Origin: Candidatus Enterousia sp.
Lineage (GTDB): Bacteria > Pseudomonadota > Alphaproteobacteria > Rs-D84
Direction: 5' to 3'
NCBI GenBank assembly: GCA_045606425.1
Contig: JAZURV010000001.1
Location: 6,904 to 70,903 of the forward strand
DNA: 64,000 nt
Shown here piece by piece: positions 11,637-63,535 of this stretch (positions within the stretch are counted from its first letter, which is position 1; each line of letters opens with the position of its first letter). The translations under genes were made by a program, and so were the position numbers. The notes under the pieces were generated by a model, which did not search any database, had not been told where the DNA came from, and saw only the letters and a list, made by a program, of their open reading frames with translations.

Positions 11637-11860
11637 AAAAACACCGCCCATTCGGGCGGTTGTTTTTTTGCGCATATACCGTAATGATTTTGCTGTACTT
11701 CGTTTCCAAAACCTTGCTTGTATTCCCCGCCCGGGGCGGGGGGACCACGAAGTGGTGGGGAGGGTTGAAAAAAACGAACAATCTGGGGAACAAAAGACCA
11801 CCCCGTCGCTTCGCGCCACCCCTCCACAGGAGGGGAACTTGCTTTCCCGGGTTCTTTTTT
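11637..11860 (+). repeat. ~225-bp GC-rich composite repeat, copy 1 (terminator hairpin, CCCCGCCC-N-GGGCGGGG / CCACGAAGTGG module, TIR-type end)
   Basis: By eye about 90% identical to the reverse complement of 63311-63535. It ends with AAAAGACCACCCCG...CCCCTCCACAGGAGGGGAACTTG, the same end as the right TIR of the queA insertion. Confidence 0.8.
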
Positions 11861-11883: not shown

Positions 11884-12135
11884 GATTCCCCTCCGCCGGA
11901 GGGGAGGGCCCGCAGGGCGGGGAGGGGTCAAATTAAATTCAGTTTATTAAATCTAACAGATTGCCAGTGCGACGATTTGTGCGTGCCAGATTTTTAAGTT
12001 TTTTATTATATGGATTTATCATATTTTCATCTTATTTATGAAAAATAATGAATTCAATAATAAATTTTTATTTGACCCCTCCCCGTCTTGTCGTCACTGC
12101 GTTCCGCCAATCCACCCCTCCGCCGGAGGGGAATT
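11884..12135. mobile_element. MITE-like non-coding element: two inverted GC-rich ends of the CCCCTCC-N3-GGAGGGG family flanking ~135 bp of AT-rich DNA
   Basis: The left end GATTCCCCTCCGCCGGAGGGGAGGGCCCGCAGGGCGGGGAGGGGTCAAAT and the right end ATTTGACCCCTCCCC...CCACCCCTCCGCCGGAGGGGAAT are inverted. There is no ORF inside. Confidence 0.5.
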
Positions 12136-12159: not shown

Positions 12160-12232
12160 ATTCCCCGCCCCGGGCGGGGGGGACCACGAAGTGGTGGGGA
12201 GGGTTGAAAAAACGAACAATCTGGAATTGTTG
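12160..12232 (+). repeat. Partial copy of the GC-rich repeat (CCCCGCCCCGGGCGGGGGGGACCACGAAGTGGTGGGGAGGGTTGAAAAAACGAACAATCTGG module)
   Basis: Nearly identical to 11724-11787 and to the reverse complement of 63380-63446. Confidence 0.75.
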
Positions 12233-12502: not shown

Positions 12503-12579
12503 TGGCGCGCCCAGAAGGATTCGAACCCTCAACCTTCTGATCCGTAGTCAGATGCTCTATCCAATTGAGCCATGGGCGC
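12503..12579 (-). tRNA. tRNA-Arg(ACG)
   Basis: The reverse complement GCGCCCATGGCTCAATTGGATAGAGCATCTGACTACGGATCAGAAGGTTGAGGGTTCGAATCCTTCTGGGCGCGCCA folds as a cloverleaf with anticodon loop CTACGGA. CCA is encoded. Confidence 0.9.
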
Positions 12580-46977: not shown

Positions 46978-47214
46978 ATGAAATATACAGAAAAAGAAGT
47001 TAATGCAATCATTAATAAAACTATTCGTAAAGAACGCAGAATTGCATCGGCACTGATATTTTTGTCGGGAATAATGGGAATTTTGGCGGGCAAATGTTCT
47101 AATCCGGTTCCGAACCGCGAAGTTAAATCGGGCATTGTGTCGGCTGATTCCGCAAAGGGTTTTCAACCTGGGGATACAATAAAGGTTATTTTGATAAAAG
47201 AAAAACAAAGATAA
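46978..47214 (+). CDS. Small membrane-anchored protein, tandem paralog 1
   Basis: MKYTEKEVN...FQPGDTIKVILIKEKQR. It is part of a ~250-bp tandem duplication. Confidence 0.5.
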   Translation: MKYTEKEVNAIINKTIRKERRIASALIFLSGIMGILAGKCSNPVPNREVKSGIVSADSAKGFQPGDTIKVILIKEKQR

Positions 47215-47227
47215 AAAAGGATACACA

Positions 47228-47452
47228 ATGAAATATACAGAAAAAGAAGTTAATAAAACTATTCGTAAAGAACGCGGGATTGCGTCGATCTTGATGCTTT
47301 CTTGCTTTGCAATTGGTATGTTGGCAGAAAGGTGTTCCAATACAACTGCGAATAGAGATGTCAAATCTGGTGTTGTGGCTGCTGATTCTGCCAAAAGTTT
47401 TCAACCTGGCGATACAATTAAAGTTATTTTGATAAAAGAAAAACAAAGATAA
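47228..47452 (+). CDS. Small membrane-anchored protein, tandem paralog 2
   Basis: Near-identical N- and C-termini to 46978-47214. Confidence 0.5.
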   Translation: MKYTEKEVNKTIRKERGIASILMLSCFAIGMLAERCSNTTANRDVKSGVVAADSAKSFQPGDTIKVILIKEKQR

Positions 47453-47465
47453 AAAAGGAATCATA

Positions 47466-47855
47466 GTGAAAAAAATAAATTATAAATTGTTGGCACTGAT
47501 GCCAATGTTTGTTTTGACGGGCTGTGGCGAAAAGCATGTGCATAAAAATATTGTCATAGGCAAAGCGTCTGTTGGCAACGACAAGATTTTCTCTGTCAAA
47601 GACATCAAAACGCGCGAAGAAAGGGTTTTCAGAATAGGTACCGGTCTGAATGCCAGAAGTGATTTTGATTTCTTTAAAATTGGTGATACAATATCCATTT
47701 ATACGGGCGGCGTATATCGTTCTGAAAAATATTATCAGACAAATGCAGTTTTGAATTCTGGCGAATTTGGAATGTCTTATAATTCTGATTTGATTGCCGC
47801 CAGACGTAAACAGCAAAAAATTGGTATGATGAACCAAAACACAAAACAAAGATAA
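47466..47855 (+). CDS. Small lipoprotein, distantly related to the two preceding genes
   Basis: GTG start, lipobox VLTGC, a FKIGDTISIY motif and a KQR C-terminus. Confidence 0.5.
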   Translation: MKKINYKLLALMPMFVLTGCGEKHVHKNIVIGKASVGNDKIFSVKDIKTREERVFRIGTGLNARSDFDFFKIGDTISIYTGGVYRSEKYYQTNAVLNSGEFGMSYNSDLIAARRKQQKIGMMNQNTKQR

Positions 47856-47856
47856 A

Positions 47857-49344
47857 ATGCTGTGTACATCTGATTTTGATTTTGAATTGCCGGGCGAACT
47901 GATTGCGTCGCATCCATTGCATGACCGTGATGCGTCGCGTATGTTGGTTGTAAACGCCGGCAAAACAGATGATAAACATATTCGTGATATAGTTTCTTTT
48001 ATTAAACCTGGCGATGTGGTTGTTTTTAATAATTCGCGTGTTATACCTGCGCGTTTTGATGCGGGTGGGCATGAAATAACATTGCATACATCTGTCAATG
48101 ACAAAGACTGGTGGGGGCTGTGTAAAAAATTCAATAAAATCAACATTGGTGATACGCTGACAATGGTTGACGGGACGGCTTTGACTGTGTTGGATAAAGA
48201 TGACGAAAGTGGACTTTTGTTGCACTTTAATTGTGATAATGTTTTTGATTTGTTGAATAAATATGGGAAAATGCCATTGCCACCATATATGAAACGCGAA
48301 GAAGAAACCGAAGATAGAGAGCGTTATCAAACCGTATATGCTGACTCGTTGGGGTCTATGGCGGCGCCAACCGCAGGACTTCATTTTACAGATGATTTGT
48401 TAAAAGAAATCGAAAAAGCCGGCGCAAAGATTGTAAAAATTACATTACATGTTGGCGCGGGCACATGGATGCCGGTAAAAACCGAAAATCTGAACGAACA
48501 CAAAATGCACAGCGAATGGTGCTGTATTACACCAGAACAAGCGGAAATTATAAATAATGCAAAGCGTGTTATTGCGGTTGGCACAACATCTATGCGCACA
48601 TTGGAAAGCGCCCATCAATTAGTGTTGAAAAGTCAAGTTCCCCTCCTGCGGAGGGGTGCCCGCAGGGCGGGGTGGTCTTTTGAAAAAGGTAAGTTTGGGG
48701 TTAATTTTGATTTGCCTTTTAATAAAAATCTTGCAGAACGTGCAAAACAATTGCGAAAAGCAGGCAGTTTACCAGAAGCATTGTTATGGAAAGAATTAAA
48801 GGGAAAACAAATCAACGGTCTTGATTTCGACAGACAAAAAGTTATTGGAAATTATATCATAGATTTTTTCTGTGAAGAACTTGGTATAGTTATCGAAATA
48901 GACGATAAATCTCATGATATGAAAGAAAAGTATGACGAAAACAGAGACAAATATTTAAAAAATCTCGGTCTTGAAATAATTCATATATCGGCAAAAGATG
49001 TGTTAAAAGACCCGGTGGGGGTTGCAAACTGGTTAAAGACCACCCTGGCCGTTGGCCACCCCTCCGCAGGAGGGGAACTTGCATCGCTGCAGGAAAAAAT
49101 GTGTGTCCCACGTGTTCAACCAATATGCCAAACCACAGATATATTTATCACACCGGGCTATAAATTTGGTGCGGTTGATGTGTTGTTGACGAATTTCCAT
49201 TTGCCAAAATCGACATTATTCATGTTGGTATCTGCATTTGCAGGACTGGACGAAATGAAAGCCGCCTATAAACACGCGGTTTCGGAAAAATACAGATTTT
49301 TCAGTTATGGTGATTGTTGTTTGTTGTTCAAAAAGGATGAATAA
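47857..49344 (+). CDS. queA: S-adenosylmethionine:tRNA ribosyltransferase-isomerase (QueA) carrying a ~150-aa in-frame insertion
   Basis: SDFDFELPGELIASHPL..RDASRML at the N-terminus; VGTTSMRTLESA, TDIFITPGYKF, NFHLPKSTLFMLVSAF and YRFFSYGD in the C-terminal part. It is 495 aa, whereas E. coli QueA is 356 aa. Confidence 0.85.
   Translation: MLCTSDFDFELPGELIASHPLHDRDASRMLVVNAGKTDDKHIRDIVSFIKPGDVVVFNNSRVIPARFDAGGHEITLHTSVNDKDWWGLCKKFNKINIGDTLTMVDGTALTVLDKDDESGLLLHFNCDNVFDLLNKYGKMPLPPYMKREEETEDRERYQTVYADSLGSMAAPTAGLHFTDDLLKEIEKAGAKIVKITLHVGAGTWMPVKTENLNEHKMHSEWCCITPEQAEIINNAKRVIAVGTTSMRTLESAHQLVLKSQVPLLRRGARRAGWSFEKGKFGVNFDLPFNKNLAERAKQLRKAGSLPEALLWKELKGKQINGLDFDRQKVIGNYIIDFFCEELGIVIEIDDKSHDMKEKYDENRDKYLKNLGLEIIHISAKDVLKDPVGVANWLKTTLAVGHPSAGGELASLQEKMCVPRVQPICQTTDIFITPGYKFGAVDVLLTNFHLPKSTLFMLVSAFAGLDEMKAAYKHAVSEKYRFFSYGDCCLLFKKDE
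48634..49081 (+). mobile_element. TIR-bounded cassette encoding a DUF559 / Vsr-like endonuclease domain, inserted in-frame in queA
   Basis: Left end CAAGTTCCCCTCCTGCGGAGGGGTG... and right end ...CACCCCTCCGCAGGAGGGGAACTTG are inverted (25 nt perfect, ~47 nt imperfect). The interior encodes LPFNKNLAERAKQLRK..LPEALLWKELKGKQINGLDFDRQKVIGNYIIDFFCEELGIVIEIDDKSHD. Confidence 0.6.
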
Positions 49345-49346
49345 AC

Positions 49347-50615
49347 ATGAAATACGAACCAACTTCTCATAAACTTTCTAATGGTGTCACTGTTATATTA
49401 GACCCGATGGACATAGAAACTGTGGCTGTCAAAATACGTTTTGCAACAGGCAGTCGTGATGAAAAAACCGAAAATTACGGTATCACACACTTTTGTGAAC
49501 ATATGCTGGTCAAAGGAACCAAAAGATTTGCATCTCGCAAAGATTTGAAAGATTTTATAGACAACAAAGGCGGCCAATTTAACGCATCTACTTCTGATCG
49601 CTCTTTGCAATTACATGGTCGAATAATCGCGGAAAACACAAATGATTTACTAGAATTGTTTGCAGATATGTTGCAAAATTCTGTGTTTGATAATCAAAAA
49701 ATAGAAATTGAACGCGGTGTAATTTTAGACGAAAGACGCCAATCTGTGTGTTCCATTAAGCGCAAATTTTGGGATCTTGTAGATACAAGTTTGTTCAGTC
49801 ATTCTCATTTTCGAACTATTGGCAGTGAAGAGAACATAAAATCTTTTACTCGCGAACAAATGCTGAATTGGTTGAACGAACGTTTATCTGCGCAAAATTG
49901 TATAATATGTATATCTGGACGCATAAACGATAAAGAAAAACTTTTGGAAAAATTAGAAAGTTTGTACGGCTTTTTGCCAAATCGTCAAGTGTCAACAAAC
50001 AAAGAATTAAAATATACGCCGTGTGATAAATTTTCTTATGATTCAAGTTTAAAAAATGTACGGATATGTATTGCTTTTCCATATATTCGTCCTGATACAT
50101 ATGAAAATATATTTAAAGATATCGCAGAATCAAAGTTTCGTAAATATCTGTCCCAAGAATTAAACGAAGCACTTCGTCATCAAAACGGATTAGTGTACGG
50201 ACTTGGGGTGTCTAGTTATGGCAACGAAATAAATGGTGTGCGTGGCATAGAAACAGAAACTTCGCCAGAAAATTTGGAACGTGTGGTGGCTTTAATTGCA
50301 CGAACAGCATATCGTGTATATTACAAAGATAAAATAACCCAACAAGTAATTGACAGAATCACTAACAGTCATAAACTTGCAGATGCAGATTTTCTGGAAA
50401 ATGCATCGCAACGACGTGATCTTTTAATCGCAAATTGGGCAGATTTTGGCGTTTTATATGAATATAATCGTATCATAGAGATGGACAGAGCCACATGTGT
50501 CAAAGATGTAATAGAAGCGTCCACGGGCTTTTTTGATGGGCCTATGTCAATTATAAGTTTTGGTGCAGAACACAGTTTAGATTTACGTCAAATCTGGATT
50601 GATAATTTTAAATAA
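49347..50615 (+). CDS. M16-family (pitrilysin/insulinase-like) zinc peptidase
   Basis: HxxEH motif in GITHFCEHMLVKGT. Confidence 0.8.
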   Translation: MKYEPTSHKLSNGVTVILDPMDIETVAVKIRFATGSRDEKTENYGITHFCEHMLVKGTKRFASRKDLKDFIDNKGGQFNASTSDRSLQLHGRIIAENTNDLLELFADMLQNSVFDNQKIEIERGVILDERRQSVCSIKRKFWDLVDTSLFSHSHFRTIGSEENIKSFTREQMLNWLNERLSAQNCIICISGRINDKEKLLEKLESLYGFLPNRQVSTNKELKYTPCDKFSYDSSLKNVRICIAFPYIRPDTYENIFKDIAESKFRKYLSQELNEALRHQNGLVYGLGVSSYGNEINGVRGIETETSPENLERVVALIARTAYRVYYKDKITQQVIDRITNSHKLADADFLENASQRRDLLIANWADFGVLYEYNRIIEMDRATCVKDVIEASTGFFDGPMSIISFGAEHSLDLRQIWIDNFK

Positions 50616-63310: not shown

Positions 63311-63535
63311 AAAAAGAACCCGGGAAAGCAAGTTCCCCTCCTGCGGAGGAGTGGCGGAACGCCGGGGTGGTCTTTTGTTTTCCAGATTGTTCGTTTTTTT
63401 CAACCCTCCCCCCCACTTCGTGGTCCCCCCCCCGCCCTGGGCGGGGAATACAAGCAAGGTCTCGGAAACGAAGTACACCGAAACCGTTGCGGTATATGCG
63501 CAAAAAAACAACTGCCCGTGTGGGCGGTGTTTTTT
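63311..63535 (-). repeat. ~225-bp GC-rich composite repeat, copy 2 (inverted relative to 11637-11860)
   Basis: Its reverse complement aligns end to end with copy 1. It contains CAAGTTCCCCTCCTGCGGAGGAGTGGCGGAACGCCGGGGTGGTCTTTTG (TIR-type end) and a C9 run. Confidence 0.8.

Follow-up and report, generated by a model that had tools for sequence, protein, structure and literature searches.

An in-frame DUF559 nuclease cassette between two-hairpin repeats in queA of Candidatus Enterousia, and the wider family to which it belongs

The queA gene in a 64,000-nt stretch of Candidatus Enterousia sp. DNA (assembly GCA_045606425.1, contig JAZURV010000001.1, positions 6,904 to 70,903 of the forward strand; the whole stretch is called the window below) carries an in-frame cassette that encodes a DUF559 endonuclease domain between two inverted copies of a short two-hairpin DNA module. 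This cassette is one instance of a much larger pattern: judged by sequence comparison, the module-DUF559-module unit is shown to be cross-phylum and to lie in frame in many host proteins. We think it probable that the cassette is selfish, lives as a domain inside its host protein, spreads by homing-like gene conversion that its own nuclease triggers, the modules providing recognition site and homology, and decays to solo modules and doublets. That the unit makes up a distinct, pan-bacterial and so far undescribed class of mobile element is a possibility that we advance tentatively.

A single open reading frame (ORF) of 495 codons at 47857-49344 comprises QueA and the internal cassette, by the ORF list and by Pfam, in agreement with the original prediction of one uninterrupted queA frame; all parts of the gene lie on the forward strand. 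The 5′ part of queA (47857-48633, aa 1-259, ending ...VGTTSMRTLESAHQLVLKS) aligns with residues 10-266 of the solved QueA structure 1YY3, and the 3′ part (49081-49344, ASLQEKMCVPRVQPICQTTDIF...YGDCCLLFKKDE and the stop codon) with residues 282-345. The Queuosine_synth (PF02547) match is split in two, at aa 4-256 and at the C-terminus (E=1e-115, 387 bits), and in sequence alignments to the Protein Data Bank (PDB) both 1YY3 and 1VKY, another solved QueA structure, cover aa 7-251 and 427-490 with the insert between. Within the insert come, in order, the left module (48634-48680, L orientation), a linker leading to the domain (48681-48726, EKGKFGVNFDLPFNK...), the DUF559 / Vsr-like PD-(D/E)xK endonuclease domain (48727-49038, aa 291-394) and the right module (49035-49081, R orientation, the reverse complement of the left). 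The left module reads CAAGTT-CCCCTCC-TGC-GGAGGGG-TG-CCCGC-AGG-GCGGG-GTGGTCTTT and is translated as QVPLLRRGARRAGWSF; the right is translated as KTTLAVGHPSAGGEL. Alignment with an empty allele places the insertion at 48634-49080, a length of 447 nt or exactly 149 codons, where about 150 foreign codons had been proposed; base 49081 is part of the next QueA codon. QueA of the window is 91% identical to 340-aa orthologs.

The cassette ORF has no start, stop or promoter of its own; a scan for an internal promoter gave nothing in the cassette above shuffle expectation. Linker length and frame vary among element lineages. An exact look-up of the 495-aa protein found no identical entry on record, and tblastn found no second DUF559 in the window. 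The same junctions are present in independent assemblies (our labels L033, L061, L119/L120, L128, P0128, P0129, P0200 and P0207), which speaks against the assembly artefact that had been considered at the outset. Every item of the first observation is present in the sequence, and the observation is confirmed.

Searching with QueA minus the insert gave 121 orthologs at ≥82% identity. Most of these (100) are empty at both of two sites, namely site B, the window's site after TLESA, and site A, near the N-terminus after SRMLVV. Site B holds DUF559 in eight orthologs and site A in four; another eight, which form one clade, have a 13-codon solo module at site A, and one has a short GC-rich insert at site B. 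A neighbor-joining tree of the insert-stripped proteins requires eight changes for the eight site-B leaves and four for the four site-A leaves. Two filled alleles (P0128, P0129) are 98% identical outside the loop to two empty ones (P0147, P0161), and in L026 and L102 both sites are filled within one ORF. The window comes from a gut alphaproteobacterium, and QueA of the relative P0197, also Candidatus Enterousia, is 84% identical to the window's. An ancient domain fusion, in which all relatives would share the same 150 aa, had been named as the outcome that would overturn the first reading, and it is ruled out by the empty alleles: most close orthologs lack the insert, and an exact empty site was found. 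This allele comparison shows a mobile insertion, polymorphic among near-identical queA alleles, and not an old fusion.

The loop around the insert travels with it. Filled site-B alleles have the flanks HQLVLxS...ASLQEKxxxP, where the nearest empty sisters have SKLAKENGFNG; the ASLQEK..VP flank 3′ of the insert matches the loop of the empty allele L208, whose HQLVLNQ/ASNEKVPRVM is the matching empty site. The filled allele P0149 retains SKLAKE on its left side, which indicates a probable shorter, variable conversion tract. No target-site duplication is present at filled versus empty queA junctions. In the six alleles that share the window's type of element, the identity of the insert does not correlate with that of the backbone (r=-0.26), and the closest backbones (P0128/P0129, 93%) bear the most different inserts (79%). 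Taken together, the travelling flanks, the P0149 tract, the lack of a target-site duplication and the uncorrelated identities show, as a comparative pattern, that homologous recombination carries the cassette with short flanks from one queA allele to another. Three DUF559 lineages use site B, and their left modules are read QVPLLRRG, KFPSIGGV and SSPPLEGC. Two other arrangements were seen in QueA: L026 has a solo module at a third in-frame position (FDACLD/SPLARGVPGGTRRGVA/YEITLH), and L093 has, at site A, arrays of two L modules on each side of DUF559.

The cassette ends had been described as a 25-nt terminal inverted repeat (TIR) core with an imperfect continuation. The arms are there (48634-48680 and 49035-49081; 47 nt, 87% complementary, outer 25 nt perfect) and each has the expected CCCCTCC-N3-GGAGGGG hairpin, but they are better seen as a two-hairpin module with the plan AA(G/A)TT - CCCCTCC - N3 - GGAGGGG - TG - hairpin 2 - GGGGTGGTC. 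Both arms give a two-hairpin DNA fold (-12.9 kcal/mol left, -11.5 kcal/mol right). Hairpin 2 is present in 134 instances with 81 distinct sequences, 95% having a stem of at least 3 bp, and its mean energy is -5.7 kcal/mol versus -2.1 for shuffles. In a covariation set of 31 distinct equal-length modules, double compensatory changes occur at four of the five pairs, 94% of cells are paired, and none of 500 shuffles reaches the score; hairpin 2 is conserved, by this covariation, as structure only and not as sequence. Hairpin 1 was fixed by the search pattern, so that its invariance in that module set is uninformative; its natural variants are compensatory, CCCCTCT/AGAGGGG in L209 and L102, and CCCCGCC/GGCGGGG in the window's second repeat family.

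Among four copies of the window's element lineage, B1 (window, L033, L119, L061), left modules are nearly identical despite a proportion of synonymous differences (pS) of 0.48-0.66, which is near saturation; the differences within the hairpins fall at the hairpin-2 loop and the others at the arm's first base, and the right arm is slightly variable. The module is read in all three frames across DUF559 subfamily proteins, including three queA lineages (PLLRRG / SPPLEGC / FPSxGGV), and therefore acts as DNA or RNA, not as peptide. Modules open in all six frames make up 40%, versus 15% of shuffles, and the encoded peptides are Gly/Pro/Arg-rich. Rfam gave no family match for the modules or the insert and nothing meaningful in 48500-49200 at E up to 10; at gathering score, three tRNAs are its only matches in the window. 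Hairpin 2 of the left module with GTGGTCTTTT (48659-48681) looks weakly terminator-like, as a hairpin with a T-run, in a simple scan; it is presumably read through, since downstream queA is under purifying selection.

The assignment of the insert to DUF559/Vsr held in sequence and in fold. The PF04480 match scores 90-93 bits against a gathering cut-off of 20.6 and spans profile positions 2-105 of 109 (E=1e-25 in the ORF, 1e-26 with the insert alone); DUF559 and MTES_1575 are the only Pfam content of the insert. The DUF559 protein 3HRL matches the domain in sequence (E=1.7e-13) and is the best Foldseek match of the AlphaFold2 (AF2) model of the 115-aa core (E=5e-7, template-modelling (TM) score 0.84 on target), a model with a mean predicted local distance difference test (pLDDT) of 92.6. 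The catalytic domain of I-Bth0305I (3R3P) is also matched (E=7.6e-4, TM 0.70 on target). All 24 invariant columns of a 30-sequence subfamily alignment, including E23, D39, D52, E63, D65, H69 and D76, are kept in the window copy, and the domain has an E..D...H-type motif, IEIDDKSHD. PADLOC defence models gave the insert a weak match only, to mREase_II (methyl-directed restriction endonuclease; E=0.0055, 14 bits). The Foldseek search also matched several Toxoplasma mitoribosomal large-subunit proteins (9i05, 9g6k), where, from the structural match, a DUF559-like fold appears to have been reused as an RNA-binding module.

In the full-length AF2 model the DUF559 domain is confident (pLDDT 86-95), and the module-encoded segments, residues 260-280 with the linker and 398-417, are below pLDDT 50, consistent with flexible linkers. 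DUF559 is thus modelled as an independent domain; the QueA part of the model is too poor for claims of orientation. Selection estimates from the four B1 copies give the DUF559 coding part a dN/dS of 0.06-0.15 (dS 0.76-1.6), and against other insert-bearing alleles the queA 5′ part has 0.03-0.05 and the 3′ part 0.02-0.04. By these low ratios, both nuclease and QueA are maintained by purifying selection, and the 0.02-0.05 on both halves argues for QueA being functional as an enzyme with its insert. With the near-identity of the modules among these copies, selection is seen on the module DNA as well.

The repeat and the nuclease extend well beyond this genus. An exact-pattern scan of a species-representative genome collection, with 21 specified core bases, found the module core in at least 116 stretches, so that the TIR core proposed for the window does occur elsewhere. 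Among the matches listed, core-bearing stretches are mostly from gut Alphaproteobacteria; other carriers listed are Kiritimatiellales, Pontiellaceae, Verrucomicrobiota, Pseudanabaena, Cyclobacteriaceae, Muribaculaceae, Chitinispirillia and a Bacteroides fragilis bin. Desulfonatronum has R-L-DUF559-R between hsdR and hsdM, and a Planctomycetota metagenome-assembled genome has L-DUF559-L-R. We surveyed the flanks of 70 metagenomic DUF559 loci (52-91% identity, with enough flank) for a core within 260 nt. A core is present upstream in 54, downstream in 57 and on both sides in 46; in 52 the upstream side has the full L module, at a modal distance of 23 nt from the domain, and cores are sparse in the far flanks, at 30 in 126 kb. 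No modules were found at more distantly related DUF559 genes (34-41% identity), so that module association defines a DUF559 subfamily.

HMMER against 1.84 billion representatives found 17,145 DUF559 relatives at E≤1e-3 and 3,750 at E≤1e-10; in many of the top 150, DUF559 lies inside a long protein, and 22 of 80 metagenomic DUF559 copies are embedded in long ORFs. By Pfam, the in-frame hosts are QueA, Mur ligases, class-II fumarase, cofactor-independent phosphoglycerate mutase (iPGM), class-V aminotransferase, PriA, RhuM and RsmA/KsgA, along with the restriction-modification proteins HsdR, HsdS, Type ISP/IIG enzymes and N6/N4 methylases, and restriction-modification genes are strongly over-represented among them (P0248-P0363, L138-L207). 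Translated modules flank the inserts in these hosts, as in fumarase (NSPPSEGW..GVV ... NHPALSGTPSKEGN). In HsdR the insertion point is between HSDR_N and the ATPase. The window cassette had been taken for the coding member of a repeat family resembling miniature inverted-repeat transposable elements (MITEs) or doublets of repetitive extragenic palindromic sequences (REPs and their doublets, REPINs); with a cross-phylum unit, doublets and solos in hand, that description fits and proves to have been too narrow. Viral contigs gave seven DUF559 loci with modules in one only (L210, 54% identity), and phages are not the main carriers of the unit.

The closest free-standing homologs (L121-L124, about 2001-2558) have uvrB on one side and tsaE on the other, and stop codons overlap start codons. 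An R module followed by a degenerate L module is translated as part of the N-terminus, and no module lies on the 3′ side; this looks like a long-resident, possibly domesticated copy. In L038 (5724-6105), DUF559 and an L module follow in frame after 31 TsaB-start-like residues (MILVIDTSSSGIGLALEG...), and the contig ends inside the domain; with this tentative host assignment, queA, the tsaE neighbour and the TsaB-like start give three tRNA-modification contexts in the clade. The 377-aa ORF of P0243 consists of three tandem DUF559 domains.

DUF559 adjoins about 10 of 125 core occurrences (116 loci) among the matches listed; among these same matches, most module copies have no DUF559 within 8 kb and about 20 of the 125 are inside long open frames. 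The window itself has six CCCCTCC-N3-GGAGGGG sequences (11819, 11888, 12115, 48640, 49059, 63335) versus 0 in 100 shuffles, and the recurrence of the ends without coding cargo, already noticed in the original prediction, takes three forms here. An intergenic solo module lies at 11793-11841 (-), and another, with one hairpin-1 mismatch, at 63329-63375 (+), both found by core search and GC-island scan. The third is a doublet at 11885-12134 (+), with an L-like (11885-11932) and an R-like (12070-12134) module around an AT-rich non-coding interior of about 135 nt that has no DUF559 similarity by tblastn; its termini are ATTCCCC rather than AAGTTCCCC. In L037 and L062 the L and R modules of doublets are 30-46 nt apart, and L035 has repeated doublets.

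Since hairpin 1 is a palindrome, L and R modules share a 17-nt direct repeat, and site B of L209 (P0230) has exactly AAGTTCCCCTCCATCGGAGGGGAACTT, 27 nt or nine codons, with the loop of the B2 element, which is the product expected from recombination between L/R direct repeats. In-frame solo modules are found in QueA (L026, the P0172 clade, P0230) and in other long ORFs, of which two, by eye, we take to be MutS-like (L030) and Der/EngA-like (L055). The N-termini of HsdR proteins also have in-frame solo modules (...YAPDIAPEFPSDGGV...). Judged by layout, both the doublets without cargo and the solo hairpins in frame appear to have arisen by decay.

A sibling repeat with CCCCGCC-N3-GGCGGGG as hairpin 1 was found by GC-island scan at 11716-11773 (+), where it also gives a two-hairpin DNA fold, at 12160-12212 (+) and at 63398-63460 (-). 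Its copies always adjoin a family-1 module, and a composite repeat of about 150 bp is present twice, at 11700-11850 and, as the reverse complement, at 63320-63470. A tRNA gene (12506-12579, -) lies close to the 11885-12134 doublet. Upstream of queA in the window are two tandem paralogous small ORFs, 46978-47214 (78 aa) and 47228-47452 (74 aa), of the form MKYTEKEVN...PGDTIKVILIKEKQR, and then a lipoprotein-like ORF (47466-47855); the relatives L117 and L119 have three small ORFs at this position. Local synteny differs, in that queA is followed directly by tgt in relatives (L117, L119, L209) and not in the window, where the downstream ORF at 49347-50615 presumably encodes an M16 peptidase, by its look.

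The cycle that we consider probable would run as follows. The cassette would sit in a variable surface loop of QueA and be translated as an internal domain of a still-selected enzyme, the modules making in-frame insertion tolerable by having few stop codons and encoding flexible-linker peptides. We infer that the nuclease drives the transfer between queA alleles: it would cut an empty target, which could be an empty loop allele but is more attractively pictured as a module doublet without cargo, and repair from the filled copy would install the cassette in a homing-like gene conversion. Modules would serve both as recognition site and as portable homology arms. Recombination between the L/R direct repeats would delete the ORF, and what remains, either doublets or single in-frame hairpins with a length of 27 or about 48 nt (9 or 16 codons), would be the non-coding members of the family.

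Several points weigh against this cycle. One element lineage occurs both at site A (P0020) and at site B (L017) with 95% aa identity, three lineages share site B, and no sequence similarity between empty sites A and B was seen; such site use argues against a classical one-enzyme/one-site homing endonuclease, as far as these alleles go. Insert dS is as high as backbone dS, with no sign of a recent sweep. The domain, of about 110 aa, is without the extra DNA-binding domains (NUMOD-type) of characterised EDxHD enzymes. The QueA part of the full-length AF2 model is poor (predicted TM-score 0.47, from a shallow alignment), so that placement in a surface loop rests on loop variability and the PDB sequence alignments. 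The nuclease could be a passenger, and the arrival of modules at new sites such as protein loops is without an explanation in this scheme.

A rival explanation is hairpin-directed transposition of the REP-associated tyrosine transposase (RAYT) or IS200/IS605 type. DUF559 would then be a structure-specific nuclease acting on module hairpins in extruded or single-stranded DNA, excising or copying cassette, doublets and solos to new sites, with in-frame copies the survivors of selection. Several facts agree with it: a single enzyme gene is enclosed by inverted hairpin modules in genomes that also have many solos and doublets without coding content; hairpin 2 is kept as structure, as a protein that recognises structure would lead one to expect; one lineage is present at two sites; many unrelated host genes are hit; and, as for IS200/IS605, there is no target-site duplication. 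We nevertheless regard it as unlikely, if the most serious competitor: filled alleles differ from empty sisters also in their loop flanks, the mark of recombinational replacement, only one to three DUF559 copies were seen per locus or genome fragment, and we know of no strand-transfer or ligation chemistry for a PD-(D/E)xK/Vsr-type nuclease, TnsA of Tn7 performing cleavage only. It is less probable still that DUF559 is a passenger or domesticated gene, retained because it serves the host, in repair, restriction-like defence or an addiction-type effect, while the modules are moved by host functions or another enzyme, its queA position being an accident of module-mediated recombination. The syntenic, translationally coupled uvrB-DUF559-tsaE copy in relatives, with its degenerate 5′ module and missing 3′ module, would fit, as would enrichment in or next to restriction-modification genes, purifying selection over long divergence and the module copies that, among the matches listed, mostly lie more than 8 kb from any DUF559. 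The tight module-domain spacing and the two-sided inverted layout across phyla point instead to a co-evolving unit, distant DUF559 relatives have no modules, and the PADLOC match is not a convincing one.

Two remaining explanations have very little probability. QueA might have gained a nucleic-acid-binding DUF559 domain that contributes to tRNA modification, and an intact frame with both parts under purifying selection is what such a functional fusion would predict; we consider it highly improbable, given the 100 empty close orthologs with filled alleles scattered among the rest, the three lineages at one site with a second site in use, the same cassette in unrelated enzymes, and the inverted-repeat ends. 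A chimeric join at GC-rich repeats deserves mention since repeats are an assembly hazard and the DNA probably comes from a metagenome-assembled genome. With identical in-frame junctions in many independent assemblies from different hosts and studies, and with copies that are diverged (dS 0.8-1.6) yet intact, an assembly or binning artefact is scarcely credible.

If the homing-like cycle is right, the cassette would be a minimal, promoter-less nuclease gene of about 450 bp that lives by being translated inside host proteins without splicing, and the two-hairpin module would be both its target, or landing pad, and a sequence coding for a flexible linker. This would define a new mode of persistence for a selfish nuclease gene, with a structured-DNA partner and an in-frame, non-splicing insert in housekeeping and restriction-modification proteins. 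It would give a biological role to DUF559, a large nuclease family of 'unknown function' for which we know of no assigned biology. Decay would seed genomes with REPIN-like doublets and with in-frame peptide insertions like the Rickettsia palindromic elements (RPEs), so that in-frame palindromic repeats would have an enzyme-linked origin, and homing endonucleases, REP/MITE-like repeats and in-frame palindromic peptide insertions, usually handled apart, would be joined. There is a systematic annotation problem as well: translated repeat DNA is what underlies the 'fusion' proteins and also the Pro/Gly-rich extensions at the N- or C-terminus of DUF559 ORFs. Module linkers with a self-folding domain amount to a natural experiment on the tolerance of enzymes to domain insertion, and cutting of modules or empty sites and biased gene conversion are testable predictions.

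The cassette falls outside inteins, introns, RAYT systems and classical TIR transposons: for each of these a defining feature was tested and found absent. Like inteins it is an in-frame selfish insertion with an endonuclease domain in a conserved host protein, patchy among orthologs; unlike them it has no Hint/splicing domain and presumably stays in the mature protein. Its junctions (...KS/QVP... and ...GEL/ASL...) are without the Cys/Ser/Thr and His-Asn needed for splicing, and these residues together with the lack of a Hint domain rule an intein out. It resembles a TIR transposon or MITE in its 47-nt inverted arms and in the non-autonomous doublets (window 11885-12134, L037, L062, L035), but there is no target-site duplication at queA, and DUF559, the sole ORF, is of no known transposase family. 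REP/RAYT systems (REPtrons) and REPIN doublets likewise combine a single enzyme gene, set between hairpin repeats in inverted orientation, with many non-coding hairpins and inverted doublets scattered elsewhere. RAYTs are relatives of HUH/Y1 transposases and REPs are extragenic, whereas the enzyme here is PD-(D/E)xK/Vsr-like and the unit is often in frame inside genes.

RPEs, which Ogata et al. are said to have described in 2000, are reportedly in-frame palindromic repeats of about 100-150 bp in protein-coding genes; we know of no enzyme associated with them. The two share GC-richer palindromic repeats in an AT-rich alphaproteobacterial genome, in frame in protein loops and translated. The module differs in its length, 27-48 nt, and in having the DUF559 cassette as coding partner, and the likeness is drawn at the level of description. 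The RPE comparison made in the original prediction is apt as an analogy, solo modules being in frame in QueA and in other long ORFs. No published description of the module-DUF559 design was found in the full-text literature, subscription-only papers being outside that search.

Two kinds of homing system come closest. EDxHD homing endonucleases are found in group I introns or inteins, or free-standing next to split inteins (PMC3239194, PMC2677866), and have N-terminal NUMOD/helix-turn-helix (HTH) DNA-binding regions (PMC3239194). With I-Bth0305I and the 'fractured genes' family of these enzymes the cassette shares nuclease superfamily and fold, residence of a selfish gene inside a host gene and, by appearance, gene-conversion-like spread with co-converted flanks. 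It differs in having no intron by Rfam, no intein, and no NUMOD/HTH domain by Pfam, in being translated as part of the host protein and in being bracketed by structured inverted repeats. Sporadic filled alleles, co-varying flanks and insert/backbone incongruence would agree with site-specific homing of the EDxHD type, and the presence of one lineage at two sites would not. The ShiLan element is a non-splicing homing insertion in a phage DNA methylase that leaves the host frame open and is predicted to loop out of the host protein; its HNH endonuclease is read in another frame, from a GTG start to a stop codon of its own, and the element is without terminal modules (PMC11855218, 2025). Like ShiLan, the DUF559 cassette is open in the host frame without intein or intron features, behaves in a homing-like way and has methylases among its hosts; unlike ShiLan, the nuclease is read in the host frame without start or stop, and the unit has two-hairpin terminal modules and non-coding derivatives. 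Among non-splicing insertions that leave the host frame open, ShiLan is the nearest precedent, and in its workings the cassette is most like a homing endonuclease gene.

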